From Blastocatellia bacterium (GTDB lineage Bacteria > Acidobacteriota > Blastocatellia > UBA7656), in assembly GCA_023265195.1 (NCBI GenBank), contig JAHFUG010000004.1, forward strand, positions 1 through 48,568: a DNA stretch of 48,568 nt. Reading direction: 5' to 3'. A program made the position numbers and the translations under genes. The notes beneath the pieces are model-generated. The model searched no databases. It was given only the letters and a program-made list of their open reading frames with translations, and was not told the DNA's origin. Positions 15,395 through 48,336 of this stretch are shown one piece after another (position 1 is the first letter of the stretch; every line of letters starts with the position of its first letter).

Positions 15395-15397
15395 AGC

Positions 15398-24267: not shown

Positions 24268-24274
24268 TTAATGT

Positions 24275-26966: not shown

Positions 26967-26970
26967 CGGA

Positions 26971-30597: not shown

Positions 30598-30763
30598 CTA
30601 GGCAAGGGGCTCCGCCCTTGATATCCCGAGTGTGGAGTTCGGAGTTCGGAGTTCGGAGTTCGGAGTTCGGAGTTCGGAGTTCGGAGTTCGGAATGCCGGA
30701 TCACGCGGTGGTCCTCGGGGGAAACGCGAACAGAATTCTCGTAACGATCGGCATAAACGGCTA
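30598..30763 (+). repeat. Dispersed ~160-bp element, copy B
   Basis: Same flanks as copy A (2088..2245) with 4-5 substitutions. Begins CTAGG and ends GCTAG. Lies between the divergent BNR gene (-) and atpD (+). Confidence 0.9.
30628..30697 (+). repeat. Heptanucleotide array inside copy B: 1 x GAGTGTG + 8 x GAGTTCG + degenerate GAATGCC
   Basis: Counted directly. Unit number and dominant unit differ from copy A. Confidence 0.95.
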
Positions 30764-30826
30764 GTGGTGCTTGGCGGAAATAATTGGACAGTGGCATCGC
30801 AAAGGCTCGGCCGAATCCGGCGTCCC

Positions 30827-30904
30827 GATCAACCGCTGATCTACGCTGCCTTCGGCCCGCTGATCAGCGCGGATCAGCGTTACGCAGTCAGCGTAAATCA
30901 GAGG
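30827..30904. repeat. Cluster of short GATCAGCG-type direct/inverted repeats (REP-like)
   Basis: GATCAACCGCTGATCTACGC...CTGATCAGCGCGGATCAGCGTTACGCAGTCAGCGTAAATCAGAGG. Related low-complexity strings occur at ~4719-4750 (CAGCGCTGACGGCTGAAAGCTGATCGC) and ~48355-48395 (CACAGATGAACACGGATAAACACAGATC). Confidence 0.6.
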
Positions 30905-31058
30905 TTTCTCGGATCGGCGCCGTCCGTTGGCTGAAACTGAAACTGGCAAACCTCAACTTCCATATGCTATCGTTCAGAACTTTATCGGCGGCGCTTATTC
31001 GCCGCTTAGGCTCTCTGATGACTCAATGAGCACTCTTTCCAAGGAGCGAGGTTCGTAG

Positions 31059-32549
<1,491 letters not shown>

Positions 32550-32648
32550 GAGAGAAAAGCGAGGAAGAGCCCCCGTACGTAGGCAGAGACTCGGGCTTCA
32601 TTCCAGACAGGCTAAAGCCCGCGGTACATCGGATACTTTAAAGAGAAT

Positions 32649-33068
32649 ATGGCCAAAGGAATTCATCTTCAGATATACACTCCCGGTCAGCAAGTATTGG
32701 ACGCGGAGGTTGACCGGGTCGAAGTTCCGGCGCTGGACGGCGAGATAGGCGTCTTGCCGGGCCACACTGAACTCGTCTCTCTGCTAAAGCCCGCGGGTGT
32801 ATTGACCTATCACAACGGCGATTCAGCGGAAGAAATAGCAATTAATGATGGCTTTTTCGAGGTCGCCCCTGACAGCGTGGTGATATTGGCGGATGGCGCC
32901 GCCCGGCCGGAGGATATAGATCCGGCAGCGGCTCTCGAAGCCAAGGAGCTTGCCGGGCAAAGAGTCGGTAAATCGCTGTCTGACCCAAGCATTGACGCCG
33001 GTCAGGCGTTGGTCGAGCTTGACCGAGCGACTATCGCCTACAACCTCGCTAGCAAGCCGCGAACTTAG
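32649..33068 (+). CDS. atpC: F-type ATP synthase epsilon subunit
   Basis: 139 aa directly after atpD. VPALDGEIGVLPGHTELVSLL is typical of the epsilon N-terminal beta sandwich, and a helical C-terminus follows. Confidence 0.88.
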   Translation: MAKGIHLQIYTPGQQVLDAEVDRVEVPALDGEIGVLPGHTELVSLLKPAGVLTYHNGDSAEEIAINDGFFEVAPDSVVILADGAARPEDIDPAAALEAKELAGQRVGKSLSDPSIDAGQALVELDRATIAYNLASKPRT

Positions 33069-33118
33069 CTGCCAGCTTCCGTTAAGACAACGCCGTCCGC
33101 GCTCACAATCGCGAAAAC

Positions 33119-34000
33119 TCACTCCTCACCCGGCACCCACAACAGGGCTCGCTTCACCACTTGAACGTTATTAGGCTGAAGGCCGATGTCGAACGGATCG
33201 TATTCACTGGCGAGCGCGAGGTATTCCTCGTACAACCTCGTGAGGGCTTCCCGAGCCTCCTGTTCGACTCGCTGCAAATCCTGCCTGAGCTCCGTCTCAT
33301 CGTTCAACATCTCGTTTTCCGCCGCCGGCGCGACCGTTCCGAACACCGCGCCCGCTAGCGTGGAAAACATCGATGCAAGCCGGTTCTCGCTTTCGAAGAA
33401 CTGGAGGTTGAAAGAGATCAGCTTGTCGAGACTCACCTCATCGCGAGATCTGAGGCCCTTTCGCGCTTGCGCCTCCCTGATCTGCTCGATTTGAAGTTCG
33501 ACCCTGTTTCGCAGACTCTCGAGTTCGGGCTCCACGCGGCCGAGCGCCGCCTCGGCTATGCGGCCCAGGAAATCTTCGAGCGAATCGCCTGGCGCCGAAA
33601 ACTGGCCGAACACGGGATTGAAGAAGACTCTGAGCCGCTCAGTGCGAATAAGCTTGTTAACCAGTTCGATCTCATACTGAACGAAACTCTCCGCGGACGC
33701 CGGATGGTTTCCTTCGGCGTAGGGAATCAATCGCTCGGGCTGGCTAGACAGCCTGGATGTGTCGTCGAATATGACCGCCGGTTGATCCCAATTGATGGCT
33801 GTTTCACCTTCCGGGAGCCACGCGGTGTAGTTATGCTCCTCGGACTGATTGAGCCCCGCGCGAAGGCTGCGGTAGTTGAGGGTGCACTCTACGAGCACGG
33901 CCGGGCGGTAGACCCACGCTCCGGTTCGCGATTCGGCTGGACGATACCAAAACTCGGACACGCCCTCGATTTTGAGTCTGGTGGTTTGCTCCTCATTCAT
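33119..34000 (-). CDS. Hypothetical protein (293 aa)
   Basis: Balanced protein-like composition, unlike the Arg/Leu-rich antisense ORF 33467..34099. Downstream of the Zn-ribbon coiled-coil gene in the same orientation. No family recognised. Confidence 0.6.
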   Translation of the reverse strand: MNEEQTTRLKIEGVSEFWYRPAESRTGAWVYRPAVLVECTLNYRSLRAGLNQSEEHNYTAWLPEGETAINWDQPAVIFDDTSRLSSQPERLIPYAEGNHPASAESFVQYEIELVNKLIRTERLRVFFNPVFGQFSAPGDSLEDFLGRIAEAALGRVEPELESLRNRVELQIEQIREAQARKGLRSRDEVSLDKLISFNLQFFESENRLASMFSTLAGAVFGTVAPAAENEMLNDETELRQDLQRVEQEAREALTRLYEEYLALASEYDPFDIGLQPNNVQVVKRALLWVPGEE

Positions 34001-34124
34001 AATGCGAACTGCTTACTCAGTCCTTATTGGGTGAAATGGAACCGGTCTCAGCGAAGAGATCCGGGAGGCGCTCTTTCGAGCGGACGATCAGACGCATAGG
34101 ACGGCGCCGCGGGGTTCGCTGGCG

Positions 34125-34868
34125 CTACGTCGTCACCGCCTCCGCTGACTGAGTGGTGTTGGGACGATAAAACAGAATACGGCTGCAACTGTCGCAGGTG
34201 ATCAACTGGTCGCCCTTCCTCACGTCGCTGAATATCTTCGGGCGAACTCTCATTCGGCATGCGGAGCAGATGCCGTCACGCACTTCCGAGAGGACTATGC
34301 CCCGCCTCGCCTTTGCAACCCGTTCGTACATTGAAAGCAGGGTTTCGGAAATGGCGGCCGCTATTCCCGCTCTTCTCCCTTCAAGCGATCTGACCAGATC
34401 TTCTTCGCGGTCTCTTTCCTGATCTAGCGTCGCGAGAGCCTCGTCGACCTCGGCCCTCTTGGCGTCTATATCGGGCGCGAACGTCTTCAACTGAGCAGCC
34501 AGTTCCTCGGCTTCCTCCATTCGTCTTAGTATCTCGGTCTCGAGGGCGCTGGCGTGCTTTTTGGTCGCGTCGATCTCGCGCAACGCGGTTACGTATTCCC
34601 TCTCGTTGCTGACGCGCATCAGGTCTTGCTTGAATTTTTCGTGATGAGCCTGTGTTTCTACCAGTTCGCTTTCCAGTCTTGTTCGATTTTCGAGGGATTG
34701 TTCGTGCTGACTCTTCAACGCCAGGAACTCGGCCGCGTATTGACTGAACGTTGCTTCCGCCTGCTCTCGTTCCGCCGGAATACTAGCTAACTTATCCGCG
34801 ATACGCTGGATTTCAAGGTCGAGTTCCTGGAGCTCAACGAGTTGACTCAGTTCTGGGCTCACAGGCAT
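34125..34868 (-). CDS. Coiled-coil protein with C-terminal C4 zinc ribbon (COG1579/DUF164-like)
   Basis: LVELQELDLEIQRIADKLASIPAE followed by a long coiled coil, ending in CSACRMRVRPKIFSDVRKGDQLITCDSCSRILF. Confidence 0.8.
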   Translation of the reverse strand: MPVSPELSQLVELQELDLEIQRIADKLASIPAEREQAEATFSQYAAEFLALKSQHEQSLENRTRLESELVETQAHHEKFKQDLMRVSNEREYVTALREIDATKKHASALETEILRRMEEAEELAAQLKTFAPDIDAKRAEVDEALATLDQERDREEDLVRSLEGRRAGIAAAISETLLSMYERVAKARRGIVLSEVRDGICSACRMRVRPKIFSDVRKGDQLITCDSCSRILFYRPNTTQSAEAVTT

Positions 34869-35022
34869 CCTCCATGTTGTCAGCCGACAGTCTACAACAT
34901 CAGACTTCTTTGCTCAAGGATGGCTGGGTATGGTCCTTCTCGCGTTGCGCGTGATAATCGCCGTAGGCTAGTATTCCTTCTCTTCGTTGGCGTCGAAATC
35001 CTGGCGCTTGGAGGTAAGTCGA

Positions 35023-35544
35023 ATGGAAACCGGAATGAAGCTATTCTCAGCGCTGCCATTGGCCCTCTTACTCGCGATATCCGCGTCTACACCGGCTTCA
35101 AACCGGCCCGGCGGCGCCGAAGATGGCGAGAAGGTCATGCAAGAACTCAAGCTCCTGGATATGGACGGCAAGCCCTACGACGCGTCGAAATTGAAAGGGA
35201 ACGTTCTGGTTATAGACTTCTGGGCCACGTGGTGCAAACCCTGCATAAATGAAATACCCGATTTGAACCGATTGCAGGAGAAGTACGCGAATAAAGGACT
35301 GAAGGTAGTAGGGGTGACGATGGCCTCCGGCGAGGCCCCAGAAGTGAAAGCGCTGCTGGGCAGTTTCAAAATGCAATACACGGTGCTGATGGGCGACGAC
35401 AATCAGAGCTACGACCTCAACATTCACAGCTATCCAACGACCTATCTGGTGACCAAAGATTGGAAGGTGCGGCGAATCTATTTGGAAGCTGGTCCCAAGA
35501 AAGCAAGAGAACTCGAAACCGAAATACAAAAGCTCCTGGATTGA
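35023..35544 (+). CDS. TlpA-family thiol:disulfide oxidoreductase (thioredoxin fold), exported
   Basis: ATG 35023 with GGAGG 8 nt upstream. Signal-like MKLFSALPLALLLAISAS. Active site FWATWCKPC. Confidence 0.85.
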   Translation: METGMKLFSALPLALLLAISASTPASNRPGGAEDGEKVMQELKLLDMDGKPYDASKLKGNVLVIDFWATWCKPCINEIPDLNRLQEKYANKGLKVVGVTMASGEAPEVKALLGSFKMQYTVLMGDDNQSYDLNIHSYPTTYLVTKDWKVRRIYLEAGPKKARELETEIQKLLD

Positions 35545-35838
35545 TTGGCGGAATTTACTCCCGTTCTTTCGTGATCCGGGGCAGCAAGTCCGCGGCTTCG
35601 ACTTCGATCAGCGATTCGACTTTCGATCCGATGATTCCATATGTTCACGGCCACATAAGCTCTGTAATAATTTTCGCCTCAGCTTGGGCGAGCAACTTGA
35701 CTCTGTAGATGATCTCTTCCTCTTAAGCTAAAGCTTTACCGATCTTAGCATTATCCGCGATCCGGTTTGGATTGCGCGTCACAAGTGTGGCTCGGGCCCG
35801 CTCGAATGGAACAAATCGCTCAGGAAAGGAGCAATTAA

Positions 35839-37245
35839 ATGGCGTCCAAGAAAGTCGCATCTTCAAAGAAAAAGCAATCGGTCGAGAGTAACAAGCCCTC
35901 GAAGCTGAAATCGGCGGCGAAGAGTAAGGCGCCACTTCGAAGGGCCGGACCACAATTGGGATCGGCGCAGCAGACGTACCTTTCGACTAATTATCAGTTG
36001 CAGCCCGCTTATGCAGATCCGAGCGGCGGCGTTTCATCAGTCCCGTTTTTACTTCCGCCAACACAGGTCTCGAGCGCCAGCACTTATGGCCAGGCGATAG
36101 AGGTCGATATCAGCATGGTCTATGGACCGGCCGCCTTGCCGTCCGGAGCGTCGTGTCAACTCGGATCAGGAACGGACTTCACGTTGAGTTGGGGCGCCGA
36201 CCCCATCTACGCGGGCGGTCTTGTCGCCCAGGTCTTCATTCCGGCGTATGCATGGAGCGCCGCGGCAGCCGACCGCCAAAAGTTACAAGCCTCATTCGCG
36301 GGCCTGCTTCAGGCGCTGGAGGGGTTGGAGTCTAAGCAGTGTCTTATCACCGGCGGCGCAAGCGCGATCGCTCAACGCGCCGCCGAGGCGATACCCGCCC
36401 CGATTAGCGAGGTTCTGTATTACAGGTATGGATTCAACTCCGCCAATGCTTATGTAGACATTCAGGCGGGCATGCGCTTGAGAGTTGAATCGGCCGTTTT
36501 CGAGTATGCAGCGCCAAACTCCACTCTGAACGGTTTCGTCGGTTCCAGCGTCGCCCACTACGACGTGGTCGGGTACATTAACCCCAGCGGTATCGCTCGT
36601 CTCGCGTTTGACGCCTTCTTAGGCTCGATCAGGCCTCCGAACGTGCTGTCCCCGACAAACGTCGCGGGGGGAATCATCGACTTTCAGGGAAATCAACTGG
36701 CGCGGCGCTACTACAGGCTTTTCTATCCGCCCAATTTCTCGAGTTCATCACAAGGCAACACCAGCACGGCGAACAACGTGATGCTCATCGGCGCCAACAC
36801 TCTGGCGGATCTTACGGCCGCGACGACGGCGTATCTCCAGAACCAGAGTTGCGCTCCTGGTGCGACCTCAGTGCTTTGCAATCTGTTCCGCGGGCGCGCG
36901 ATCGCGATCCCGGAGATCCTGGTTTACTTGGCCGATCAAACCGTCAATTTTCCACCCGGGACGCAGCCAACGGTTGGCGCTCAGCCCGTATACGTTCCTG
37001 TCGGGACCACGGTGCGCAATTTGATCGAGCGGCGCTTCAACTGGATATTCACTCAGGCGTACCCGGAAAGCAAAATCTCTCTGATGCGGCCGTACAGGCA
37101 GATCAGCCGGAACGCTGCTCCGCCAAAACCCTCCAACTACAACACCGTGCAGTTCAATCAATCCACGGCTCCGGTAACCCGCCCCGACAACTACGACGCG
37201 CCACTCGTCAAGGGCGACGTGCTCAGCTTCACCAACAACATCTGA
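35839..37245 (+). CDS. Uncharacterised 468-aa protein with a Lys/Ser-rich N-terminal tail; partner of the giant gene
   Basis: AAGGAG 7 nt upstream of the ATG. The first 34 aa, MASKKVASSKKKQSVESNKPSKLKSAAKSKAPLR, carry 11 Lys. The remainder is S/A/G/N/Q/P/Y-rich with no signal peptide and no motif I recognise. Confidence 0.8.
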   Translation: MASKKVASSKKKQSVESNKPSKLKSAAKSKAPLRRAGPQLGSAQQTYLSTNYQLQPAYADPSGGVSSVPFLLPPTQVSSASTYGQAIEVDISMVYGPAALPSGASCQLGSGTDFTLSWGADPIYAGGLVAQVFIPAYAWSAAAADRQKLQASFAGLLQALEGLESKQCLITGGASAIAQRAAEAIPAPISEVLYYRYGFNSANAYVDIQAGMRLRVESAVFEYAAPNSTLNGFVGSSVAHYDVVGYINPSGIARLAFDAFLGSIRPPNVLSPTNVAGGIIDFQGNQLARRYYRLFYPPNFSSSSQGNTSTANNVMLIGANTLADLTAATTAYLQNQSCAPGATSVLCNLFRGRAIAIPEILVYLADQTVNFPPGTQPTVGAQPVYVPVGTTVRNLIERRFNWIFTQAYPESKISLMRPYRQISRNAAPPKPSNYNTVQFNQSTAPVTRPDNYDAPLVKGDVLSFTNNI

Positions 37246-37269
37246 TGGCTCGATGAAAAGGAGACAAGC

Positions 37270-40200
37270 ATGAGCCCCCTGACATTCAACCTGATCCCCG
37301 GAACCCAACTCTACTCGGCTGTTTGCGGCTCCGCCGAGGCGGGCTCGGACGGTCCGCAAGTATTTTACCTGATCGAATCCAGCGCGCCTCCGCCGCGGAT
37401 CTCCCTGCTCGATTCGTGGCGGACATACCAAGGGTACTATGTTTTCGTTGAGGCCGGAGTCACCGACCCAGCGGCCTTCGCGCGGAGATTGCTCCAGTAT
37501 CTAAGCGGCGAGGCCGGAGGCGGCCAAGGCTTCTTGTGGGTGTTCAATCCGAATGATTCGACGGAACCGCTGAATGTCATACCTCTTTCAGTGAGCGGCT
37601 TTCAAACAACGCCCGCCACGTTCAACTTCCGAAACAACATACTGGTGGTTGGGTATGGATGCGCGATCACGGCCGATACCCAGAACAACCGGTTCGTAAT
37701 ATCGCAACCGTCAACCGATAACAATCGAATCTATCTTCAAGTGAATTGGGGCGGCGCAACCCTAACCGACGCGGTCGGTTCGACAGTTTATATTCCCTTG
37801 TGCGGGGCCGGCTCAGGCTGTCTACAGTTTCAGGCGTCGTTGATCGAGTCGTATCTTGACGGTACACACCTGGACGCCGCGCTTCGTTACTTCATCGACG
37901 ATAACTCACGTCCTCAGCCAGGCTTCTTGACTTCGCAGCGTTATCCACTTCTGAGTCTGGCTGGCGGCAGCCTTAGCTTGATGGTCAACCTGAATCCGCT
38001 CGATCCAACGGACGCTTCTCGAAGCTACTTTTCATTCACCGAACAAGCAGGCGGAGGGACCGCGGATCAGGCGCCGATAGGATCGTATTTCAGGACGAAC
38101 GCAGGTCTGCCGGTTATGCTCGCGCCGCAACCGAACGCTCGATTCGTATTCGCTCCGAACCCTCAGGCCACGTCGCCCGACGCCAACGATCCGTTATACC
38201 TCGTTCCGTCGGGCGACTTTCTGATGTCTTCCGAAAGCGGCGCTGGAAATCGTTTGCAAGGCGGCAACGCGCCCCACGGGCCGCGATTGATTTGCGGAAT
38301 CGGAGGCAACGAATATTTCGATCTCTTGTCGGGCGGACAATCGAACATCTTAAGCTTCACACCCGGCAATGCCGCCTATGTTCCCGGGTTAGGTTCCCAA
38401 CAAGCGCCGGAAAATGATCCGCTGCAAGGAAACGCGACTACTTCGTGGATAACGGTAAAACCGGCGCCAACCGCGGAAGTCAACTATTACGCTCAGCCTC
38501 AGAACGCCGAACTGTACGCGGAGGGCTTTCCGTCGGGCTCGACTTCAAATGAAAGCTCGGCCGGCGATAGCGGCGCGCGGATTCTCGGTTTTCTCGAAGT
38601 CGCTGCAATCGGATTCACCGCCGGTAGCCCGGTTCCATTGGTCCCACTCGCGCCGTACGCCGGAATCGAGTACGCCAGTATCTCACCGGACGCGGTTCAG
38701 CGGATTGAGACCGGCGTGCTGGCTCCATTTCGCCGGACAACCCTTGGCTATGGCGCCAACGCCGCGGCGCCTATCGCCGCTCCGCCGGCCCCAAATTCGA
38801 CGACGCCGCAAGGTTTGCTCGCGAACGTCTCTGGGTCGAATTGGAACTCGCTCTTGCTCGGTCAAAGCTCCGACGGGTCTCGACAATTCCTTGTCAACGT
38901 CGCTTCGTCGAACCAGTTGCAACAGGCGTTGCAGACCAATCAACAGTTCATAGTAGTGACGGATCTCAAGGGCGTGGCCTATTTTCAAAGCCAGATTTCG
39001 ATTGGAGGTTGGACCTTTGACTTCAGCACGCAGCCGAAGCCTCCGGCGGGCGATTATTACAACGTTTTGATATTCAAATACTACAGCGCGTCAATAAAAG
39101 AACTGGCCGCAGCCACTCAGATGTGGACCAATCCGAGCCAGTTCAACGCGAAGCCTTCGGACGTTTCCACGTGGCTCGGGAGCTACATTCAGGATGCTGA
39201 AAACCAGGTAAGCGGCGGCAACACTCGCTTCCAGAGCTTCGTCGATCTCGTGAACGACGGTTCCTGGAACGGCGTGCTCGGGTTGAACGTGTATATCCCG
39301 CCCGGCGAACTTCCGCCCGAGGTGCAAGGCCTGCTCGGCGGAATCGATCTTTCAAAATTCAGCGCGCATCATTTCGGGATCGAGACCAACTCCGTGGGCT
39401 CCGGCTTCACGCTTACCAGGAGTTCTCTGTTCGCCCTGATCAGCTACGATAATACGAGCAGCGGCATCGGCGCGCCGCGGGCGGACGGCGATTACTCGTT
39501 CAAGGTGCTCACCCTTCAGGTCGTCTTCGCAAACTCCGAAGTAACGGACTTCAACAGCCAGATTCAGGTGACGATCAACAATCTGTTCGACGTGGGCGCC
39601 AACCTCGAAGGCGGCAAGGACAACTCAGTCGTTCTTCAGGGAACCTACGAATCTCACAACGGAGCCAGCACGTATTCTTTCACCGCGGCGGGAACTTATA
39701 CATTCAAGCTCGATTCCGATCTCATCACGGACGTTACGTTCACCAAGGTCCAGTTCACGACCGTATCCGCGGCGGCGGGCGGCGGCGACATAACATCCAC
39801 ATTCGCGTTCTGGGGAAGCATCAAGTTCGGTACGCTCGCCGGCTTCGATTTCTTCTCGTTCGATGATCTGGCGTTCGCCGGGCTGAGCCTATCGTTCACG
39901 TTTAATACGGCGAACATCGGCGGCGACAACTTGCCGATCCAGTCGTTCACATTCGATCCTGGCGATATACGGTTCGATGTGTCCATAAGCAAGGCCCGGC
40001 AGCAGAGTCTGCTCGAGTATTTCCCGCTCAGGCTGACGGGATTCACTTATGCAAGCGGCGGCGTCTCGATCTCCGACCTCGGCTACGTTCAAGTAGCCTC
40101 GCCGATAGCGAATCTGGCCGGTGACGTGACCTATGCGCTGATGTTCGAGCTGGACCTTGGTTCGATTGGCGCTCTCGCATCCCCGCTGAAAGGGTTCGCG

Positions 40201-43200
40201 GCCGACCTTGTCGCGGGTTGGAATCCCCAGAGCCCGGGAAAAGTCGCGTTTGGCGTCAAGCTCCCTGAATCGAGCGGGGGTAAGCTGCAAATCGGAATCC
40301 AAGGCGTGCTGCTTTTGACGATTCAGAACTTTGAGTTCACAACACTGCCGGCCAAAGACTCGACGCCACAACGATACGTTCTTTATATGCGTGGATGCAC
40401 GCTCGAAATGTTCGGTGCGACCGTGCCGTCTTCGGGCTCCTTCTCGTTCGTATTCTTCGCGCCAACCGAAGAATCCGCCAGCGCCGCTCTGAGCAACCTG
40501 GGATGGTTTGTCGCCTATTCGAAAGGCTCCAACGGAGCGGGGCAGCTCGAAGCCGGCGACGGAGAATCCAGCACGTTTTTCGCGCTTTCTTACCTGGGCC
40601 TAGGTCAGCGAGTCGTTGTGCCTGGTGGACTCGATGATGCGAACACCGTGTCCGGCGTGCTCGACGCGATGGCAAGCAAGCTCACGCCCGATCTGACCGG
40701 CGACGCCCTCAACGAACAGCTCGCGCGGATCTACGATTCAGACGCGGGCTGGATAGTCGGCGGCGAGTTTACGATACTCGAGACTATCACTCTCGGCGCG
40801 GTCTACTACGATCCCAGCCTTTACGGGTTGCTGGCCGGAATTGCGAAAGGAAAGCTCGGCCCACTCGGCGGATTCAACTTCGAGATCCTTTACAAGAAGG
40901 TCACTGACACAATCGGTGTGTACCAGATTCAACTCACGCTGCCCGACTCGCTGAGGCAACTGCAGTTTGGCGAGGTGTCGATAACGATCCCAGTCATAGG
41001 GATCGACATATACACCAACGGCAACTTCAAGATCGATGTCGGCTTTCCGAACGGAACCGACTTCTCGAATTCGCTCACGATTCAGGTGTTCCCCTTCATC
41101 GGCGCCGGAGGCTTCTATTACGCACGGTTGAGCTCGGGGACCGCGACCGACCTCCCGGCGATTCCACAAGGCGCATTCGACCCGGTGCTGGAGTTCGGAT
41201 TCGGCTTGAGCCTTGGCGTCGGCAAGACTATCAACGTAGGCATCCTGTCGGCCGGTGTCTCGGTGACCTTTGCCGGAATTCTGGAAGGAACCGTAGCGTA
41301 CTGGGTTCCGCCAAATCAATCTTCGAGCGGCGCGGCCGTCTTGTTCAACAAGGCGCCGGACTATTACGCGATCAGCGGGCAGGTCGCGATTGTCGGCACG
41401 TTGTACGGTGTAGTCGATTTCGGCATCGTCAAGGCGAGTCTGACTGTCACTATCTCAGCGGGCGCGACATTGACCTGGCAGGCTTACCAGGATCTGTCGC
41501 TCTCGGTTTATGCTCGGGTGTCGGTCAGCCTTGAAGTGGTGATCGGCGGTTTCAAGATCTTCGGGATCAGAATCGAGATCAAGATTCGATTCTCGTTTTC
41601 CGCCTCGATCAGCTACACGTGGACCTTCCCCGATAACAGGATTCCACCGTGGTCGGCCGGTCCGGCCTTCGCGACAGACTCGCGGTTTCTGGCCGGCGCC
41701 GCCCCAATCGGCCCGATTCAATGGAACTCGATCACGATCAACACGTCGAAGGTTCCGGTCGTCTTGTACTTTTCGCCGCAGGTCACGGTTGCGATCCCTC
41801 CTGACGCAGATTCCACGCAAGCGCAGTTCGTAGCCCTGCTGACCATGAACACAACGGCCGCGTCGGGTCCAGCCGACTTCGACAACCTTGCGTCCGCCTT
41901 GCTCGCGTGGGCCGTCACGTTGTACGCGGGATTGACCTCCTACAACCCAGGTTTGCCGGTTACGGCGGATGGAATTCAGGCGCTGAACGATCTGTTGTCG
42001 ACTCCCGGCGCCAGCGTTAACGATGGCCCGGCGCCGCTGAACTACTCGAACATCAGCAATTTCCTCTTCAACAATTTCGCCGCCTCACTACAAGGCGTCC
42101 CCGAGCAAACCGGATCGACAACCAGCCAGCAGACGACGGTGTTTCCAATGATCCCGGATCTGAGTCTTTCGGCGACCGGTCAGCCCACTACGTCATACTC
42201 GGCGGGCAGCGTCGCCGAGAACTATCTGCGGGACATCTCCGACTACTTCGCGATGTTGCTGGTGAACTTCGATCCGAGTCAATCATCGAATGGCGCGCTT
42301 GCCGCGGGGGCCGGACCCTCGATGCCCACAGTGATCTTTCAAGACTTCTTCGCGCTGGTAATCACGGCGTCGATAAGCCAGGCCTACCAGACCATGACTG
42401 GATCGAACCCTCCGGCCACGCTGGGCGCGCTGCTGACGTCGCTGCAGCAGTCGGGCGGTTTCGTCAACGTGGCCGGCCAGGCGTCCAGATTTCTGCTGCA
42501 TGGCTTGCAACTCCCCGAGCAGTTCAACCTGCCGCGGAACGAATGGGCGAATCTGGTTACCGAGCCTCTCTATTGGCTGACCAGGCAGCAATCGTTGCTC
42601 GAGCCCATCGGCGTGAACGGTTCCGTGAGTGATGCCGCTCCTATGGCCGGCAGCTTCAACGCCGAGGGCGGATTAGCCGAAGTAGATGGGTTCTACGTGG
42701 GCTATTCCATCACGTTCCTCACGGGAGCGTTGAGCAGTCAGACCCAAACGATCAGCGGCTACACCGCGGCGGCAAAAGCAATCACTGTTGCGCAGCCGTT
42801 CACGGCGCCCCCCGCCAACAGCGACAAGTTCTTACTAGCGGTGTTCGCAACGTCGTCGGTGGCGGCCGGCGGCGAGACTTCATCTACGTTCACAGGCGCC
42901 GGTCTTCCGGCGATCGACAATTACTTCGTCGATTACATCCTTACCTTCACCGGCGGCGCCTTGAATGGTCTGTCGAGCGCCGTGACCGCATATGTGGGCG
43001 CGGCTCTTCAGATCACCGTGTCGCCCGCGTTTCCCTCCGCGCCCGCCACCGGCGACGCATTCGAGATCACGCCGTACGCCGCCTCCCTGTCGGTCAACAC
43101 CAACCCCGCGCCTCAGTATCCGTGGTTTACCGCGAGCGCCACCAATCCGCCGGCCGCGGTGCTTGCGCCGGGCGCAATCGGAACCATTCAGAGCCTGGTT

Positions 43201-46200
43201 TCAACGAAGTTCGCTCCCAAAGTTACCGTGGCGGCTCTGCCCAATCTCTCGCGGCAGCCGAAGAATTTCGCGCTTCAGCGGACTACTCCCTGGCAGCTCA
43301 TCGACGATTCGGGGAGCCAGTCGAAGGTTATCGACAACTGGACCATCCTGCCGTTCCCATCGACGTTGATGGATCAGCTCGCGGACGAAGCAACGCCTTT
43401 GCCGGAGCTTTTGTTGATGGCAGGGACGGCGGGTTCGAACGATCCGCCGATTGTCCCCACTGGTCTTGCTTTTAACTGGGCTACGCTGGTCAACCTGTCC
43501 GTTCAACAGATCCCAACAACTGGAGGGGCGTTCCTGACGAACACCTATCAAGTAAACGGAACCGACGAAACCGGCCGCAACCTTCTTTATCAACTGTTGG
43601 TTCAACTCGGCGCGGCCAACGCGCCGGCGATCGATAACATTTATCTTCTATTCCAGCCGCGGCAACAGAGTCAGCAGGGCTTAGTTTCCGAAACGATCAT
43701 TCAGCGTTCGTCCAGCGTGTTGATGAAGGTCAATCTAACTACCGAAAGCGCTCCTCCTTCCGCCGGGTTTGCAGCGAGATTGTTGATGGATTCGGCGGAG
43801 CCTCCCGCCGACGCGTACAACGCGATGATCGATCAATACGCGGAGTTCCTCCGCTTGGTGTGGGAATGCAGCATCGTCAACGCGGGCGGATATTACCTTT
43901 ATTATTTGAACTCGTCTCAATCGAACAATGGATTGCCCGCTTATCTTTTCAGCGCTGGAACGACCGCGGCCGTCACGTTGCTGGTCACCTTCAAGGCGGG
44001 CTCAGCGGCCGCGAACTTCAACAACGCCGCCGTCATTACGAATCCGGGTCAAGTTCCCGCGAACCCCGTGTTCTTCGCGCAGGCTTCGAACATGCTTGAT
44101 TGGCGTCCGACGATCGCGGCCGGGAGCGTTGCGTTCAGTCTTACGACCGCCGACCCGAGTCAGAGCTTCTCAATGCCCGCCTCCGCGAAGGACTTCGCCT
44201 CTTCAAACGGCCGCGTCACCAGAGACGACGTGATCGCGGCAATGACGGCGAGCAACATGGACCCGGCTAGCGCGGAGTTCGCGGCGGCGACGGCCGAGAA
44301 CGATCTCTTGACGATGTTTAATCTGCTGACGTACCGCATCACCAACAACGGCGCGTTCAACACGAGCATTCAGGGCCTGCCGGTCGGCCCTATTCAGGAG
44401 GATGGGAATCCGGACAACGGAACCTGGAATTATCAACAGGGAGTTTCGGTTTATCCCTGGTGCAACACCGGCGGCGCTGCTCAAAACAAAGATCCGTACG
44501 CCGGAGTTGGAAACAAGATAACGCTGAGCTTCGAACTCCTGGACATCTTCGGCAACGAGATGCCATCCATTACTCCGCTGCCGGCGCTGACCACAAACTA
44601 CCTCTACTTCGATGACCTCATCCCGGTGACTTCGTGGACGGGCGTGCGAGTGGGCTACCTATGCACAACCAACGCGGGTGTGAGCACGCTCGAAGTTAAC
44701 CTGACCTTCGAGCCGTCCGTCTTTCAGACGATAACCAGTTCTTCGGTTAGCGATCCATCTCCCACTTCGGGCAGCTTCAAGGGCGCGAGTAGTCTCTCGT
44801 CTACGGACGGCGCATACGTGAACGGAACCATACAATTCAACAGTGGCGCGCTTGCCGGCCAGTCGAGCGTCATCACCGCATACATCGGCGCGACTCGAGA
44901 GATAACGGTCTCGCCCGGCTTCTCGGGCGCGCCCGCGAACGACGACGGCTTCACCATAACGGTCTGGAACCAGCAGCAGGCGGCCCAGTCACTCGACTAC
45001 TTTGAGTTGATAGGTTATCAACTGGGCGGACAAGGCGTCGGCATAACGCTCACAACCTCGCTGGCGCCAACAGTGACCGCAACCATTCAAGCGAATCAGT
45101 TCACTGGACAATCGGGCTTCGTCACTGGAATCACTAGCTTCCTGGAAGCGATCGCGGCGTCCAATCAGAAGCCGCCCGCGCCGGAGCCGTTAGTCCTGTC
45201 GGCGCCAATCACGCTTGCTGATCGAGAAGCAAACCCGAATAACATTTTCGAAGTAACCGTCACGTTAACAGTCGCCCGTGAAAGTTCCTTGGTGGACCCG
45301 AGCGTCAACACCATACAGCCCGGTGTCACTCCGCCGCTTCCGCTTATGGTTTCGTCGCCGATTCCGCCGCGGGTCGGCAACACGGCTACGACGGCGGTAG
45401 CCGGCAGTGTTTCGGCTGCGAGCTTCAACGGCGGCCCTAATTTATCAAGCGTCGATGGCTTCTACACTGGCGGCGTAGTCACGTTCACCAGCGGCAGGCT
45501 CACCGGCCAGACCAGCTCAGTCACGGAGTACACCGGCGCAACCAAGGCCATCACTGTCGCGCCGGCATTCACCGGGGCCCCAGTCGGTGGTGACGCATTC
45601 ACGCTCACTCCCAAGATGACGCTGGCGCCGTTCGCGCAGGAGTTCGAAGCGGCGTTCACCGAGATGAGAGCCGCGACCGGTTTAGGTTCCGCCGGACCGC
45701 TGTCGGTGTGGGCGGTTCGAATCGCAACCATACAGCCCGGCGCCGAAGGCATAACAGTGGCGGTCAACTCGGGTAATCCGGTCTTCTTCGCGCCGAAGCC
45801 GCTGTCGAACACGCTGCTGTCCCGGCCTGACGCGAACCATCCGGATCCGGTGATGGTCATGCCGTACGTGTCAGGCCAGGGCGACCAGCCAATGATCCCT
45901 ATGAACTTCGCGGGTGTCGATCTCGACGTGTTCGCTCGCGGCTTCTTGCTCGCTATCGATCAGTTCTTATCACCCGCGATTGCTGTTCCAGCGCGGCAAC
46001 TCAACGCCGGATACTATCTCGCTGTGATAACAGCCAAGGAGGCGTTGGCCGATGCGATCAAGTTGGGCGTCACCACCATCCTTGAAACGAACGGCTCGGT
46101 AAGCGGCGCGGCCAGTACGACGAGCTTTAACGCAGCGCCAGGCATTGCTCCCACGGATGGTTCCTACGCCGGTAGCAAACTGACCTTCACCAGCGGCTCG

Positions 46201-48336
46201 CTTGTTGGAGCCAATTCGGTGACGATTACTTCGTACACAGCCGGCAACAGACAGATAACGGTTTCGCCGGCATTGCCTTCGGCGCCAAACGCGGGAGACG
46301 CGTTCAGGATCGACCCGGGCAGCGCCGCGCTTAGCGCGGCTCAAGAAGCCTTCAAGCAACGGCTGCTCGTCACGCTCTCGAGCAACTACAACGTGAGCTC
46401 GGTCGTTCAATATCCTGTCTCCGTCTCAACCACCGGGACCGAAGAGCCGGTCGCGCCGAACCTCTACGGACAAATCGTAAATGCGGCTGGAGGATCATCG
46501 CGGCAAGACGTGGCGCTTTCGACCGCTAAGATCGCGCTCTCCACTCCAGGCTCATTGCTGACATTCCTCTTCGACTCCAGCGTTGCCGCCCAGGCCTCGG
46601 CGCAGGTGAACATGCAGTATCAGGTCACTCACGTCGAACACGAGATAGCCGAGTCCGGCCGGATCGAAGGCTACACGTCGTCTTCCTGGCTGACGTTGAT
46701 CACAAGTCCGCTGGGAACGTGGCCAGCCGGTAATTCAATGCCGGTTGGTGAAACCTCGATCCCGATTCCTCTTCGCGCGTACCCGACCCCGCCATCGCTG
46801 TTGCAACAAGCAGCCGTGCCCGGACCTTCGGAAGAACCGGTCGCTCCGGAGCCTTCCGCTACGCTCGCTTCTCAGCGGCTGTGGCGTTACGAGTGTCAGT
46901 ACCAACAGATGTACATCGCGCAGGACACGGTCGGGTCAAACATCCTGTTCAATGTTCCTCCGGCTCAGCAGCCCAGGGCTCGGCTGATGGCGAGTGAACC
47001 TGATTTATTCGATTGGCTCGCTCGATTCTCGTACGAGTATCCGCTGATTCAATCGGGTCTCGCGAAGATACCGGCTGCTCCACATGGCGATCCAGTCGCT
47101 ACCTTCGCCATGCAGCGATTCGCCGAACTTGTGTGGGGCGCGGCCTTCGGGACGCCGTTGACGGCGCCGGTTCCTCAACCGCCGCCGCCATACACAAACG
47201 GCCCGTGGGCGCGGTGGGTCACCGGCGGCGCGGCGAGCCCGCTGTTAGGCGCGATGGCCCAGCAGCTCACTCAGTACCAATACAGCTACCAGATCGAAGA
47301 GAACCCGGCGGACGGAAACGCGAGCATAGAACTGATCGCCGGCAATTCATCATATCCATTCCCGGACATCAAGATCGAAATCGCGTCCGACACGGTGACA
47401 GGCAACGTGTCGACCACCGGTTTCAACGGCGGCAATGGGTTGTCTTCCGTAGATGACTCGTACGTGGGGAGCAGCGTCACCTTCACAAGGGGACTGCTCA
47501 CCGGCCAATCGAGCGTAATCACCGCATACACTGGCGCAAGCCGCACGATCTCGATTTCGCCCGCTCTCAGCCAGACGCCCAGCGTCAACGACACGTTTGT
47601 TATCAACACGCTTGTTACACCTGACCTGGGGTCAGGTTCGGCGACTTATGCCTACGCGAATCCCAACCCGTCGAGCACGCTCGTTCGCACGTTGGTGTTT
47701 AACAAGCTCGACGTAATGAGCACCGAGAACGCCTGGGGAGGCGTGCAGTTGGCGCGCAACAAGTTCCTGGTTTCCGGGGCGGCTACTAATCCCGAGTTTG
47801 TCTACCAGACGCCGATCGTCAGGTTCGTGAATATAGTCACGCCGATGATCGATTCAACCGAGCCGGTTAACATCGCCGAAATCCAGCCAGTGAATCCGGC
47901 TACTACGCTCGAATACTATCTCTGCGTGATGTTCAAGGCGTTGTTTGCGCCGTCAGGTTCACTACGAGGAGGTCAGGAGAGCGGCAGCAGGACGATCCGA
48001 GTCGGCTGCACATACGGGTACGACATTCTAGCCAGCGAGGCTGCCAGCGACAGTCAGCAGGTGATCGTTACCGTGCCGGTGCTGCATACACCGCCGTTCG
48101 AGTTCAACCTGAGCACGGACGTTGGATCGGATTGCACGGTCGCGCCGACTTCAGGATTTGTATGCCAGCTTGGCCAAGCCATTCGCACGTGGTTCAGCGG
48201 CTACAATCCGAGCACGACTGGCGGTGTTTTTACATTCGACATGAGCGTATTCGCCGGACTCAGTCAGACGAATCTGCCGGTGCTGCGGCTTCGCGATTTG
48301 TTTTTGAGATATGACGCGATCAATCCACCCTTGTGA
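37270..48336 (+). CDS. Uncharacterised giant protein, 3,688 aa
   Basis: Uninterrupted 11,067-nt ORF. AAGGAG lies 6 nt upstream of the ATG and the gene starts 24 nt after the preceding gene. Has no signal peptide, a beta-rich core (~aa 1100-1460) and six ~72-aa repeats between aa 1786 and 3447. Confidence 0.9.
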   Translation: MSPLTFNLIPGTQLYSAVCGSAEAGSDGPQVFYLIESSAPPPRISLLDSWRTYQGYYVFVEAGVTDPAAFARRLLQYLSGEAGGGQGFLWVFNPNDSTEPLNVIPLSVSGFQTTPATFNFRNNILVVGYGCAITADTQNNRFVISQPSTDNNRIYLQVNWGGATLTDAVGSTVYIPLCGAGSGCLQFQASLIESYLDGTHLDAALRYFIDDNSRPQPGFLTSQRYPLLSLAGGSLSLMVNLNPLDPTDASRSYFSFTEQAGGGTADQAPIGSYFRTNAGLPVMLAPQPNARFVFAPNPQATSPDANDPLYLVPSGDFLMSSESGAGNRLQGGNAPHGPRLICGIGGNEYFDLLSGGQSNILSFTPGNAAYVPGLGSQQAPENDPLQGNATTSWITVKPAPTAEVNYYAQPQNAELYAEGFPSGSTSNESSAGDSGARILGFLEVAAIGFTAGSPVPLVPLAPYAGIEYASISPDAVQRIETGVLAPFRRTTLGYGANAAAPIAAPPAPNSTTPQGLLANVSGSNWNSLLLGQSSDGSRQFLVNVASSNQLQQALQTNQQFIVVTDLKGVAYFQSQISIGGWTFDFSTQPKPPAGDYYNVLIFKYYSASIKELAAATQMWTNPSQFNAKPSDVSTWLGSYIQDAENQVSGGNTRFQSFVDLVNDGSWNGVLGLNVYIPPGELPPEVQGLLGGIDLSKFSAHHFGIETNSVGSGFTLTRSSLFALISYDNTSSGIGAPRADGDYSFKVLTLQVVFANSEVTDFNSQIQVTINNLFDVGANLEGGKDNSVVLQGTYESHNGASTYSFTAAGTYTFKLDSDLITDVTFTKVQFTTVSAAAGGGDITSTFAFWGSIKFGTLAGFDFFSFDDLAFAGLSLSFTFNTANIGGDNLPIQSFTFDPGDIRFDVSISKARQQSLLEYFPLRLTGFTYASGGVSISDLGYVQVASPIANLAGDVTYALMFELDLGSIGALASPLKGFAADLVAGWNPQSPGKVAFGVKLPESSGGKLQIGIQGVLLLTIQNFEFTTLPAKDSTPQRYVLYMRGCTLEMFGATVPSSGSFSFVFFAPTEESASAALSNLGWFVAYSKGSNGAGQLEAGDGESSTFFALSYLGLGQRVVVPGGLDDANTVSGVLDAMASKLTPDLTGDALNEQLARIYDSDAGWIVGGEFTILETITLGAVYYDPSLYGLLAGIAKGKLGPLGGFNFEILYKKVTDTIGVYQIQLTLPDSLRQLQFGEVSITIPVIGIDIYTNGNFKIDVGFPNGTDFSNSLTIQVFPFIGAGGFYYARLSSGTATDLPAIPQGAFDPVLEFGFGLSLGVGKTINVGILSAGVSVTFAGILEGTVAYWVPPNQSSSGAAVLFNKAPDYYAISGQVAIVGTLYGVVDFGIVKASLTVTISAGATLTWQAYQDLSLSVYARVSVSLEVVIGGFKIFGIRIEIKIRFSFSASISYTWTFPDNRIPPWSAGPAFATDSRFLAGAAPIGPIQWNSITINTSKVPVVLYFSPQVTVAIPPDADSTQAQFVALLTMNTTAASGPADFDNLASALLAWAVTLYAGLTSYNPGLPVTADGIQALNDLLSTPGASVNDGPAPLNYSNISNFLFNNFAASLQGVPEQTGSTTSQQTTVFPMIPDLSLSATGQPTTSYSAGSVAENYLRDISDYFAMLLVNFDPSQSSNGALAAGAGPSMPTVIFQDFFALVITASISQAYQTMTGSNPPATLGALLTSLQQSGGFVNVAGQASRFLLHGLQLPEQFNLPRNEWANLVTEPLYWLTRQQSLLEPIGVNGSVSDAAPMAGSFNAEGGLAEVDGFYVGYSITFLTGALSSQTQTISGYTAAAKAITVAQPFTAPPANSDKFLLAVFATSSVAAGGETSSTFTGAGLPAIDNYFVDYILTFTGGALNGLSSAVTAYVGAALQITVSPAFPSAPATGDAFEITPYAASLSVNTNPAPQYPWFTASATNPPAAVLAPGAIGTIQSLVSTKFAPKVTVAALPNLSRQPKNFALQRTTPWQLIDDSGSQSKVIDNWTILPFPSTLMDQLADEATPLPELLLMAGTAGSNDPPIVPTGLAFNWATLVNLSVQQIPTTGGAFLTNTYQVNGTDETGRNLLYQLLVQLGAANAPAIDNIYLLFQPRQQSQQGLVSETIIQRSSSVLMKVNLTTESAPPSAGFAARLLMDSAEPPADAYNAMIDQYAEFLRLVWECSIVNAGGYYLYYLNSSQSNNGLPAYLFSAGTTAAVTLLVTFKAGSAAANFNNAAVITNPGQVPANPVFFAQASNMLDWRPTIAAGSVAFSLTTADPSQSFSMPASAKDFASSNGRVTRDDVIAAMTASNMDPASAEFAAATAENDLLTMFNLLTYRITNNGAFNTSIQGLPVGPIQEDGNPDNGTWNYQQGVSVYPWCNTGGAAQNKDPYAGVGNKITLSFELLDIFGNEMPSITPLPALTTNYLYFDDLIPVTSWTGVRVGYLCTTNAGVSTLEVNLTFEPSVFQTITSSSVSDPSPTSGSFKGASSLSSTDGAYVNGTIQFNSGALAGQSSVITAYIGATREITVSPGFSGAPANDDGFTITVWNQQQAAQSLDYFELIGYQLGGQGVGITLTTSLAPTVTATIQANQFTGQSGFVTGITSFLEAIAASNQKPPAPEPLVLSAPITLADREANPNNIFEVTVTLTVARESSLVDPSVNTIQPGVTPPLPLMVSSPIPPRVGNTATTAVAGSVSAASFNGGPNLSSVDGFYTGGVVTFTSGRLTGQTSSVTEYTGATKAITVAPAFTGAPVGGDAFTLTPKMTLAPFAQEFEAAFTEMRAATGLGSAGPLSVWAVRIATIQPGAEGITVAVNSGNPVFFAPKPLSNTLLSRPDANHPDPVMVMPYVSGQGDQPMIPMNFAGVDLDVFARGFLLAIDQFLSPAIAVPARQLNAGYYLAVITAKEALADAIKLGVTTILETNGSVSGAASTTSFNAAPGIAPTDGSYAGSKLTFTSGSLVGANSVTITSYTAGNRQITVSPALPSAPNAGDAFRIDPGSAALSAAQEAFKQRLLVTLSSNYNVSSVVQYPVSVSTTGTEEPVAPNLYGQIVNAAGGSSRQDVALSTAKIALSTPGSLLTFLFDSSVAAQASAQVNMQYQVTHVEHEIAESGRIEGYTSSSWLTLITSPLGTWPAGNSMPVGETSIPIPLRAYPTPPSLLQQAAVPGPSEEPVAPEPSATLASQRLWRYECQYQQMYIAQDTVGSNILFNVPPAQQPRARLMASEPDLFDWLARFSYEYPLIQSGLAKIPAAPHGDPVATFAMQRFAELVWGAAFGTPLTAPVPQPPPPYTNGPWARWVTGGAASPLLGAMAQQLTQYQYSYQIEENPADGNASIELIAGNSSYPFPDIKIEIASDTVTGNVSTTGFNGGNGLSSVDDSYVGSSVTFTRGLLTGQSSVITAYTGASRTISISPALSQTPSVNDTFVINTLVTPDLGSGSATYAYANPNPSSTLVRTLVFNKLDVMSTENAWGGVQLARNKFLVSGAATNPEFVYQTPIVRFVNIVTPMIDSTEPVNIAEIQPVNPATTLEYYLCVMFKALFAPSGSLRGGQESGSRTIRVGCTYGYDILASEAASDSQQVIVTVPVLHTPPFEFNLSTDVGSDCTVAPTSGFVCQLGQAIRTWFSGYNPSTTGGVFTFDMSVFAGLSQTNLPVLRLRDLFLRYDAINPPL
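42625..42840 (+). repeat. Giant-protein module R1 (aa 1786-1857)
   Basis: VSDAAPMAGSFNAEGGLAEVDGFYVGYSITFLTGALSSQTQTISGYTAAAKAITVAQPFTAPPANSDKFLLA. Confidence 0.85.
42859..43074 (+). repeat. Giant-protein module R2 (aa 1864-1935), in tandem with R1
   Basis: VAAGGETSSTFTGAGLPAIDNYFVDYILTFTGGALNGLSSAVTAYVGAALQITVSPAFPSAPATGDAFEITP. Confidence 0.85.
44746..44964 (+). repeat. Giant-protein module R3 (aa 2493-2565)
   Basis: VSDPSPTSGSFKGASSLSSTDGAYVNGTIQFNSGALAGQSSVITAYIGATREITVSPGFSGAPANDDGFTITV. Confidence 0.85.
45397..45612 (+). repeat. Giant-protein module R4 (aa 2710-2781)
   Basis: VAGSVSAASFNGGPNLSSVDGFYTGGVVTFTSGRLTGQTSSVTEYTGATKAITVAPAFTGAPVGGDAFTLTP. Confidence 0.85.
46099..46317 (+). 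repeat. Giant-protein module R5 (aa 2944-3016)
   Basis: VSGAASTTSFNAAPGIAPTDGSYAGSKLTFTSGSLVGANSVTITSYTAGNRQITVSPALPSAPNAGDAFRIDP. Confidence 0.85.
47395..47610 (+). repeat. Giant-protein module R6 (aa 3376-3447)
   Basis: VTGNVSTTGFNGGNGLSSVDDSYVGSSVTFTRGLLTGQSSVITAYTGASRTISISPALSQTPSVNDTFVINT. Confidence 0.85.

Follow-up and report, generated by a model that had tools for sequence, protein, structure and literature searches.

Tc (ABC) toxins (TcA/TcB/TcC), which are found in Photorhabdus, Xenorhabdus, Yersinia, and Pseudomonas, are multi-gene systems built around a signal-less scaffold of more than 2,500 aa, with receptor-binding domains inserted at variable positions and an exchangeable enzymatic payload. 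Their subunits undergo fusion and fission, and their distribution among soil- and host-associated bacteria is patchy, in a manner suggestive of horizontal gene transfer (HGT). In the current study, we analyzed a pair of genes, encoding a 468-aa protein (here called A) and a giant protein of 3,688 aa, that lies at the end of a contig from a Blastocatellia bacterium (Acidobacteriota; GenBank assembly GCA_023265195.1, contig JAHFUG010000004.1). The window referred to below is the whole 48,568-bp contig. Judged by homology, the pair is a member of a widespread, unnamed module of the form A-B-hydrolase-D, which resembles the Tc toxins in all of the above respects, and the window giant is a recurrent fusion of B and D, a reduced form of that module.

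The likeness to Tc toxins is one of design; no sequence relationship connects the two. The payload of the module is a stand-alone hydrolase gene; in the Tc toxins, it is a hypervariable C-terminal region enclosed by an RHS cocoon. The module core is predicted to be made of long β-hairpins, whereas the Tc channel is α-helical. In Pfam searches, which throughout this study covered the window proteins, 13 D proteins, 37 B proteins, and 14 fused giants, we found no VRP1/TcdA, neuraminidase-like, TcB-binding, or RHS/YD match (YD also being sought in the giant as a regular expression), nor did NCBIfam give one; a Tc toxin was rejected. The polymorphic toxins (Rhs, CdiA, and MafB; Zhang et al. 2012, PMC3482391) offer a second parallel in that they too combine LysM, Laminin-G, and SH3-like domains with diversifying nucleases, lipases, or deiminases. 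Indeed, secreted toxin proteins are known to be marked by carbohydrate-binding domains, and glycan-binding adhesion domains together with diversifying enzymes represent the logic of secreted polymorphic toxins (PMC3482391). However, the module does not encode its enzyme as a C-terminal cassette of the giant, and it has neither an apparent immunity gene alongside nor a secretion-pathway-specific N-terminal domain. Nor do the stalk types of that survey include A, B, or D; the module is undescribed there. Since there is no homology to either, resemblance to Tc or polymorphic toxins does not imply membership in these systems.

A third parallel is with the extracellular contractile injection systems (eCIS; Afp and PVC), which, like the module, are assembled in the cytoplasm without signal peptides and carry swappable payloads; in addition, a DUF4157 gene lies near one close relative of the window locus. 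In contrast to eCIS, the examined loci contain no sheath, tube, spike, baseplate (gp25/gp6/gp7), or AAA+ ATPase genes, and Foldseek comparisons of the A and D core models yielded no contractile injection system protein. Membership of eCIS or of type VI secretion systems was rejected, sheath, tube, baseplate, and spike genes being absent from the scanned window neighbors (positions 17325-35544; open reading frames [ORFs] at 1-17,000 were listed and fall outside this domain scan) and from annotated related loci.

In its usual form, the module consists of A (~420 aa), B (~1,150 aa), one swappable hydrolase, and D (2,500 to 4,700 aa, usually with LysM domains), in that order; on long contigs, A homologues are followed by a ~1,200-aa B, a ~400- to 480-aa gene, and a ~4,100-aa giant D. 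A profile of the D core recovered 86 relatives in GTDB species-representative genomes and 166 metagenome stretches. Carriers belong to at least ten phyla, among them Acidobacteriota, Bacteroidota (Pedobacter and Aequorivita), Chloroflexota (in Chloroflexia), Actinomycetota (Streptomyces, Cellulomonas, Glycomyces, and Catenulispora), Myxococcota (the myxobacterium Sorangium cellulosum So ce56), Pseudomonadota (Pseudomonas, Duganella, Janthinobacterium, Methylobacter, and Rhodovulum), Cyanobacteriota (Leptolyngbya, Oscillatoria, and Nostoc), Bacillota, Planctomycetota, and Eremiobacterota; the copies of Paenibacillus, Lysinibacillus, and Mycetohabitans rhizoxinica are borne on megaplasmids. B and D, which occur together in all 129 loci where both are separate genes, are the invariable pair of the module. 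Gene boundaries are otherwise fluid: D is split in Paenibacillus, and Mycetohabitans encodes the N-terminal part of D in a gene of its own. The slot between B and D is occupied by an EEP enzyme in at least 37 loci, a metallo-β-lactamase (MBL) fold protein (Lactamase_B) in 17, and an HNH protein in 2, while a PLD-like enzyme, a protein-arginine deiminase (PAD), and a GDSL lipase were each seen once. No signal peptide is visible in the inspected N termini of A, B, D, or slot-enzyme homologues.

Some loci carry additional genes near the module. In several from Pseudomonadota and Sorangium (L060:1158-2077, L032, L069, L063, L115, and L037:444-1321), a PixA-like 161-aa protein (PF12306, inclusion body protein; E = 2.3e-5) and a ~138-aa protein are encoded upstream of A, and in Oscillatoria sp. 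SIO1A7, the module is preceded, at a distance of ~4.5 kb, by a tandem array of seven RebB (R-body) genes (L004:1470-5430; L029 is on this contig as well). A search of 50,697 phage genomes gave no match to the D core. Within IMG/VR, a single contig carries B and D (L085; UViG 2541047519_000001, 69 kb), and it is possibly a prophage prediction with host DNA included.

The window giant (37270..48336, + strand) was recognized as a B-D fusion by BLAST against separate B and D proteins. Missing from it are the hydrolase gene, the N-terminal ~700 aa of D, and LysM. A tblastn search with EEP proteins found no copy anywhere in the window, and the other fused loci likewise have no gene for the B-D hydrolase slot. 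Fusions of this kind, identified by the presence of B and core motifs, account for 14 of the 150 best B matches and are also found in four related loci (L080, L089, L090, and L091); a further relative, L088, aligns to giant residue 982 only, where its contig ends, so that its fusion status is not visible. Among close relatives, A is 51 to 60% identical and the giant about 60% identical to the window proteins, and A stands directly before the giant in L088, L089, L090, and the P0009 locus. Because this order is kept while the upstream neighbors vary, A and the giant behave as an autonomous unit. The sequence-only reading, an earlier annotation made from the letters and ORF translations of this stretch, had named loss of the gene pair in related genomes as an observation that would speak against it, and no such loss was seen in the close clade. 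Its view of the pair as a self-contained two-gene module nevertheless gives way to that of a fused derivative of A-B-hydrolase-D.

Two of these relatives have neighbors of their own. In a Pyrinomonadaceae metagenome-assembled genome (L080:14508-17963), the fused giant is followed by four tandem ~270-aa paralogues unrelated to A, the first two with K/G/S-rich N-terminal tails like that of the window A and the last with a signal-peptide-like N terminus; a ParA-like gene lies upstream at 772-1575. On the P0009 contig (JGI 3300050821; genes at 8020-9336 and 10001-11425), a 438-aa PF13699 protein (eCIS_core, formerly DUF4157) is encoded two genes upstream of the A homologue, which is 51% identical to the window A.

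The first third of the giant (aa 1-1090; 37270..40539, +) is homologous to B, with 30 to 37% identity over the full length of stand-alone proteins of ~1,100 to 1,250 aa. An exhaustive HMMER search with this part returned 1,272 clusters (50% identity) at E ≤ 1e-3 and 830 at E ≤ 1e-30. No Pfam match was found in 37 B members, and no PDB sequence match was obtained. One motif, F.AHHVGI(E), at giant aa ~697-705 (39358-39384), is nearly invariant across the stand-alone B proteins (37) and fused giants (14) compared; histidine makes up 0.3% of the giant (11 of 3,688 residues). The motif could be a metal-binding or catalytic site.

The rest of the giant (aa ~1098-3688) corresponds in BLAST alignments to D from about D residue 650 to 800 onward. 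Its conserved core (aa 1098-1480; 40561..41709, +) is 33 to 50% identical to 50 loci, in an alignment with 29 invariant columns, and includes the motif block FEILY.KVTD..GVY, DIYTNG.F..D.GFP, and G[YA]GGFY[FY]A.L. An AlphaFold2 model of the core, built from 18 sequences, has a predicted local distance difference test score (pLDDT) of about 80 to 90 over aa ~1115-1465. According to DSSP on this model, aa 1302-1453 (41173..41628, +) form six predicted β-strands of 18 to 22 residues arranged in hairpins. All six are strictly dyad-amphipathic, with alternate-residue hydropathies of +2.1 to +2.8 versus −2.1 to +0.1, so that a hydrophobic face lies opposite a face of polar or small residues. In having long dyad-amphipathic β-hairpins, the core resembles β-barrel pore formers (gasdermin/MACPF and outer-membrane barrels), and the nonsignificant Foldseek neighbors of the model were indeed outer-membrane barrels and gasdermin/perforin pores. 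However, nothing in the PDB matched it significantly; with a best E value of 0.011, template modeling (TM) scores of at most 0.2, and root mean square deviations above 12 Å, no homology or shared topology with these proteins is shown. The C-terminal region (aa 3019-3688; 46324..48336, +) is also conserved: it is 25 to 33% identical to 37 D proteins, 9 alignment columns being invariant, and its profile had no meaningful PDB sequence match.

Between the core and the C terminus, and reaching into the latter, the giant contains six diverged repeats of ~65 aa that match Pfam PF09356 (Phage_BR0599; E = 4.5e-16) and phrog_778, which is annotated "tail assembly." They align to the first ~50 positions of the BR0599 model; as protein, they are 32 to 46% identical to copy 1, and as DNA, the repeats are 64 to 73% identical. 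All are on the + strand, and all are insertions relative to other D proteins, the window fusion having acquired them at insertion sites. The six-copy alignment places copy 1 at 42640..42852 and copies 2, 5, and 6 at 42868..43077, 46111..46329, and 47407..47619, respectively. Copies 3 (44761..44976) and 4 (45409..45624, with the best Pfam stretch at aa 2730-2781) lie at LysM-type insertion sites of other D proteins; overall, two or three copies are so placed. Multiple LysM domains occur in the middle region of 10 of the 13 unfused D proteins; at E ≤ 1, none was found in the window giant, and none occurs in the 14 other fused giants. Conversely, the BR0599-like domain is shared by 1 of those 14 (the closest, P0141, at 51% identity) and by none of the 13 unfused D proteins. 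The sequence-only reading had described the giant as having no recognizable catalytic, secretion, or adhesin signature; the motifs it listed are absent, as it stated, but it had overlooked these six domains.

The BR0599 domain is otherwise known from λ gpL-like baseplate hubs and those of gene transfer agents (GTA; TIGR02218 and PF09356), with which the giant shares nothing beyond this small domain. A phage or GTA baseplate hub was rejected: against TIGR02218, the giant scores 23.4 bits, over model positions 167-220 only and far under the cut-off of 80.5, and no other tail genes are found among the scanned window genes.

Protein A (468 aa; 35839..37245, +) is a partner protein conserved in the module, with 80 homologues, every one of which is named hypothetical. 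Its AlphaFold2 model (72 sequences) is confident (pLDDT, 83.5; predicted TM score, 0.84). Structure prediction had been proposed by the sequence-only reading, and here A fared as the D core did, having no significant Foldseek match (best E, 0.16 in the PDB and 0.07 in BFVD). The lysine-rich tail which that reading had noted in the protein is real, but it is N-terminal (aa 1-45; 35839..35973, +): it is predicted to be disordered, carries a net charge of +11, and has a pLDDT below 50 over residues 1 to 26. By charge computation, the body of A is neutral and the giant acidic. Such tails are present in all close relatives (P0002 to P0009, P0011, and L090) and absent from distant ones, and in other lineages the N terminus of A bears Laminin_G_3 (ConA-like lectin), Big_13/Ig-like, fn3, or LysM domains. 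Because of these N termini, the comparison suggests that A is better described as a target-binding subunit than as a chaperone, the role previously proposed for it, for which we found nothing in support. Comparison of A with B and with D by hhalign gave no sign of internal paralogy.

The earlier view of A as a dedicated partner holds in the close clade, where A immediately precedes the giant, but not family-wide: A is directly 5′ of B in about 40 to 45% of loci overall, so that a survey of gene neighborhoods does not find an A homologue before every giant, and in canonical loci it is the hydrolase and then D that follow B. In 27 of the 32 loci with an A gene, fewer than 300 nt separate its end from B.

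Several loci depart from this arrangement. Two tandem A paralogues precede B in some Acidobacteriota (L001:8664-11335 and L012:3-2478), and on plasmid pART37 of Paenibacillus sp. 37 (L087:9865-10845), a gene for a Nal1-like protein (PF25819/PF25608, a serine-protease-related family) replaces A directly 5′ of B. A 288-aa protein with a signal-peptide-like N terminus and no Pfam match is encoded between A and B in L037 (2651-3517), with homologues in L016, L039, L042, L046, L063, L093, L111, L123, L158, and L166; it is the only module-linked protein of exported appearance.

Returning to the window, the gene for A and the giant gene are co-directional on the + strand, and both start with ATG. They are separated by 24 nt, from the TGA of the former (37243-37245) to the ATG of the latter, and each has a ribosome-binding site, AAGGAG, 7 nt before the ATG of A (35826..35831, +) and 6 nt before that of the giant (37258..37263, +). 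A terminator scan found no terminator-like hairpin between them. The 24-nt gap, the paired ribosome-binding sites, and the lack of an intervening terminator suggest that the two genes form an operon. In the 294-nt intergenic region 5′ of gene A there is a promoter-like site, TTCACG-16-AATAAT with an extended −10 TG (35644..35671, +), for which the evidence is weak, the consensus scan having found 2 sites versus 1.1 expected. The longest antisense ORF wholly within the uninterrupted giant gene encodes 193 aa (40738..41319, −), and another, of 187 aa (36868..37431, −), overlaps its start. The giant ORF is genuine: its repeats have diverged, with 64 to 73% DNA identity; three sequences of 3,688 aa, from NCBI, Logan, and ENA, fall into its 90% cluster; and relatives ~60% identical are collinear with it as far as residue 982 (L088) or 1943 (L089). 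An assembly artifact, which the sequence-only reading had raised as a possible objection, and a noncoding ORF were both rejected. Neither this ORF nor its arrangement with gene A, both described earlier, required revision.

Both proteins are rich in A, S, G, T, P, N, and Q and, as previously noticed, poor in K, E, and C (1.5, 3.0, and 0.4%, respectively, in the giant and 3.2, 2.4, and 0.9% in A); the giant is uniformly acidic, with a net charge of −120. Hydropathy analysis and inspection revealed no hydrophobic N-terminal signal and no α-helical transmembrane segment in A or the giant, in agreement with the reported absence of Sec, Tat, and lipoprotein signals. The single 19-residue window with a Kyte-Doolittle value above 1.6 falls within a predicted β-strand. 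Regular expressions for P-loop, Walker B, HExxH, GGxGxD, YDxxGR, LPxTG, and PEP-CTERM had no match in the giant.

Immediately upstream of gene A, the Pfam scan places a Redoxin/AhpC-TSA (TlpA-like) gene (34987..35544), the oxidoreductase already recognized there, and on the other side the window ends 232 nt after the giant stop codon, again as described. Other neighbors within 17325-35544 include ATP synthase β and ε, succinyl-CoA ligase β, and BNR/sortilin-repeat, PEGA/TPR, HD-domain, and large FHA/MshEN proteins. The last of these, an 886-aa protein (17325-19985, −) with a zinc ribbon, MshEN, two FHA/YscD-like domains, and DUF3616, is seemingly unrelated to the module. A 293-aa ORF without a Pfam match (33119-34000, −) lies between the genes for ATP synthase ε and a CT398-like zinc-ribbon protein. 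The sole RNA gene in the window is a tRNA-Arg.

Apart from their inserted domains, A, B, and D have no Pfam, NCBIfam, PADLOC, or PDB sequence match, which bears out the earlier placement of the giant in a family with no assigned function. RefSeq names the proteins "hypothetical protein" or "LysM peptidoglycan-binding domain-containing protein." PHROGs, searched with the two window proteins, gave the tail-assembly match alone, via the BR0599-like domain. When PDB sequences were searched, with single sequences or profiles, for relatives of A, the giant, the core, B, the D C terminus, the BR0599 repeats, and an EEP partner, the only hits were spurious, namely, ATP synthase δ (E = 0.14) and a designed coiled coil. 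In PADLOC-DB v2, neither A nor the giant, an EEP protein, or any of the small accessory proteins had a match at E ≤ 0.01. Fold comparison was limited to the models of A (against the PDB and BFVD) and the D core (against the PDB). We found no description of the module among 7.7 million PMC papers and 0.34 million preprints, a scope that excludes most subscription journals. Because A, B, and D have no sequence relatives, and A and the D core no predicted-fold relatives, among characterized systems, we rate the module as apparently new in kind, its function being unproven.

Several specific identities were rejected, and no full-length match to a characterized adhesin, toxin, S-layer, or tail-fiber family was encountered. 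An RTX/MARTX protein or an adhesin of a type I secretion system (T1SS) is contradicted by the complete lack of GGxGxD, the lack of an RTX Pfam match, and the lack of T1SS genes among the scanned neighbors. For an RHS toxin or LPxTG adhesin, motifs and Pfam matches are absent from the giant, and for a Sec/Tat-secreted or wall-anchored adhesin or an S-layer protein, there is no hydrophobic N terminus, LPxTG, PEP-CTERM, or SLH match. A prophage tail cluster was set aside on the lack of tail genes among the scanned window neighbors and the absence of the core from the 50,697 phage genomes.

What might such a module do? Our preferred reading, which we advance tentatively, is that it specifies a complex that is synthesized in the cytoplasm but functions extracellularly, combining swappable surface-binding domains with an amphipathic β-hairpin core, and that the window copy is a form with no payload gene in view. 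Since none of the proteins has a signal peptide, A, B, and D would be synthesized in the cytoplasm and assembled there into a large acidic complex, which would be released by lysis or an unknown export route to act beyond the producer cell. Attachment to the target surface would be through exchangeable modules that bind glycans or polyanions: on D, LysM in most lineages and BR0599-like barrels in the window copy, and at the N terminus of A, a lectin, Ig-like, fn3, or LysM domain elsewhere and a polycationic tail in the window copy. The stack of very long amphipathic β-hairpins in the D core might then form a sheet, or an oligomeric barrel, that engages a membrane or wall. In the canonical module, this apparatus would bring one hydrolase as its payload. 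Because no payload gene is in view, the window variant may act by binding or permeabilizing alone or may depend on a payload encoded past the end of the contig.

A number of observations weigh against this proposal. No export or lysis genes are conserved beside the module. Nor is an immunity gene evident beside the hydrolases, which fits eukaryotic targets but would fit a non-toxin role equally well. Intracellular anti-phage systems, too, typically use EEP, MBL-fold, HNH, and PLD enzymes as effectors. The window copy itself has neither LysM nor an enzyme, so that the argument is transferred from relatives that are ~30 to 40% identical. Finally, the D-core model is derived from only 18 sequences, and its neighbors are generic β-barrels at nonsignificant scores.

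The bolder form of the proposal, which we regard as speculative and rather doubtful, is that an unrecognized class of giant machines, spread over many phyla, is built around A, B, and D, a class unrelated to Tc toxins, contractile injection systems, or secretion systems, whose plug-in domains bind foreign walls (peptidoglycan or chitin) and whose hairpin barrel carries a plug-in hydrolase across, the window form being a distinct subtype.

Two other explanations, each of which we consider unlikely, would leave the module at home in or on the producing cell. In the first, it is an intracellular anti-phage or abortive-infection system, with B and D as a giant sensor or scaffold, A as an adaptor, and a nuclease or phosphodiesterase as effector; the window form would then be decayed or effector-less. 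Such a system would account for slot enzymes that are classic defense effectors (EEP, MBL-fold, HNH, and PLD), for the lack of signal peptides in every component and of immunity genes, and for a patchy, cross-phylum distribution that includes megaplasmids. However, PADLOC recognized none of the proteins searched, and the regular expressions (P-loop and Walker B on the giant) and Pfam disclosed no NTPase or typical sensor domain. Moreover, the abundant LysM, lectin, Ig-like, and fn3 domains are binders of extracellular glycans, PAD and GDSL lipase payloads would be unusual for defense, and the scanned window neighbors are housekeeping genes rather than a defense island.

In the second, the module builds a surface or matrix scaffold, i.e., a giant adhesin or an S-layer-like coat anchored to the producer's own wall via LysM or BR0599, with a hydrolase that remodels polymers such as extracellular DNA. 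The composition of the proteins, low in K, E, and C and high in S, T, G, N, and Q, is like that of extracellular structural proteins; there are multiple wall-binding domains; and an acidic giant is accompanied by partners with polycationic tails. Set against this are the lack of any Sec, Tat, lipoprotein, T1SS, type V, or type IX secretion signature, SLH domain, or sortase motif and the occurrence of the same signal-less architecture in diderm and monoderm bacteria. The interchange of unrelated hydrolase classes at one slot also points to a payload rather than to matrix remodeling. The sequence-only reading had favored a fiber, sheath, or surface lattice, in support of which we found nothing specific.

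We think it still less probable that the locus encodes a degenerate particle derived from a phage tail (the tip of a tailocin, GTA, or eCIS-like structure), with the giant as tail tip or central fiber and A as receptor-binding protein. The BR0599 domain of phage and GTA baseplate hubs (PF09356 and phrog_778, with TIGR02218 weak), the PF13699 gene near one close relative, and a signal-less, lysis-released logic typical of such particles all point in this direction, but the BR0599-like inserts are confined to the window subclade, and no sheath, tube, baseplate, tape-measure, or ATPase gene occurs in the scanned window or in ~165 loci. In addition, the core is unmatched among the phage genomes, and neither A (BFVD and PDB) nor the core (PDB) has a tail-protein match. 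Least probable is an intracellular inclusion or storage body (R-body or PixA type) of giant, low-complexity, acidic proteins, since the PixA-like and RebB neighbors that suggest it are rare (5 of ~165 loci and one locus, respectively) and it leaves the glycan-binding domains and the hydrolase slot unexplained.

Whichever function proves correct, the module is conspicuous. The B family alone comprises more than 1,200 clusters at 50% identity, carriers are found among soil, rhizosphere, aquatic, and symbiont bacteria, and each copy costs 12 to 20 kb of coding capacity, yet no Pfam or NCBIfam model and no solved relative exists. If it is a delivery or attack machine, it would be a major addition to microbial warfare and to bacterium-fungus and bacterium-host interactions, as well as a modular scaffold open to engineering, in which both the binders and the enzyme can be exchanged. 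If it is instead a defense or structural system, it would still be among the largest unannotated conserved modules in bacteria. Carriers that are tractable or in culture include Pseudomonas viciae, P. citri, Pseudomonas sp. GM50, Duganella, Janthinobacterium, Streptomyces, Sorangium cellulosum So ce56, Pedobacter, Paenibacillus, and Mycetohabitans rhizoxinica, and what began as an anonymous pair of metagenomic ORFs thus becomes a question that is directly testable in cultured species.

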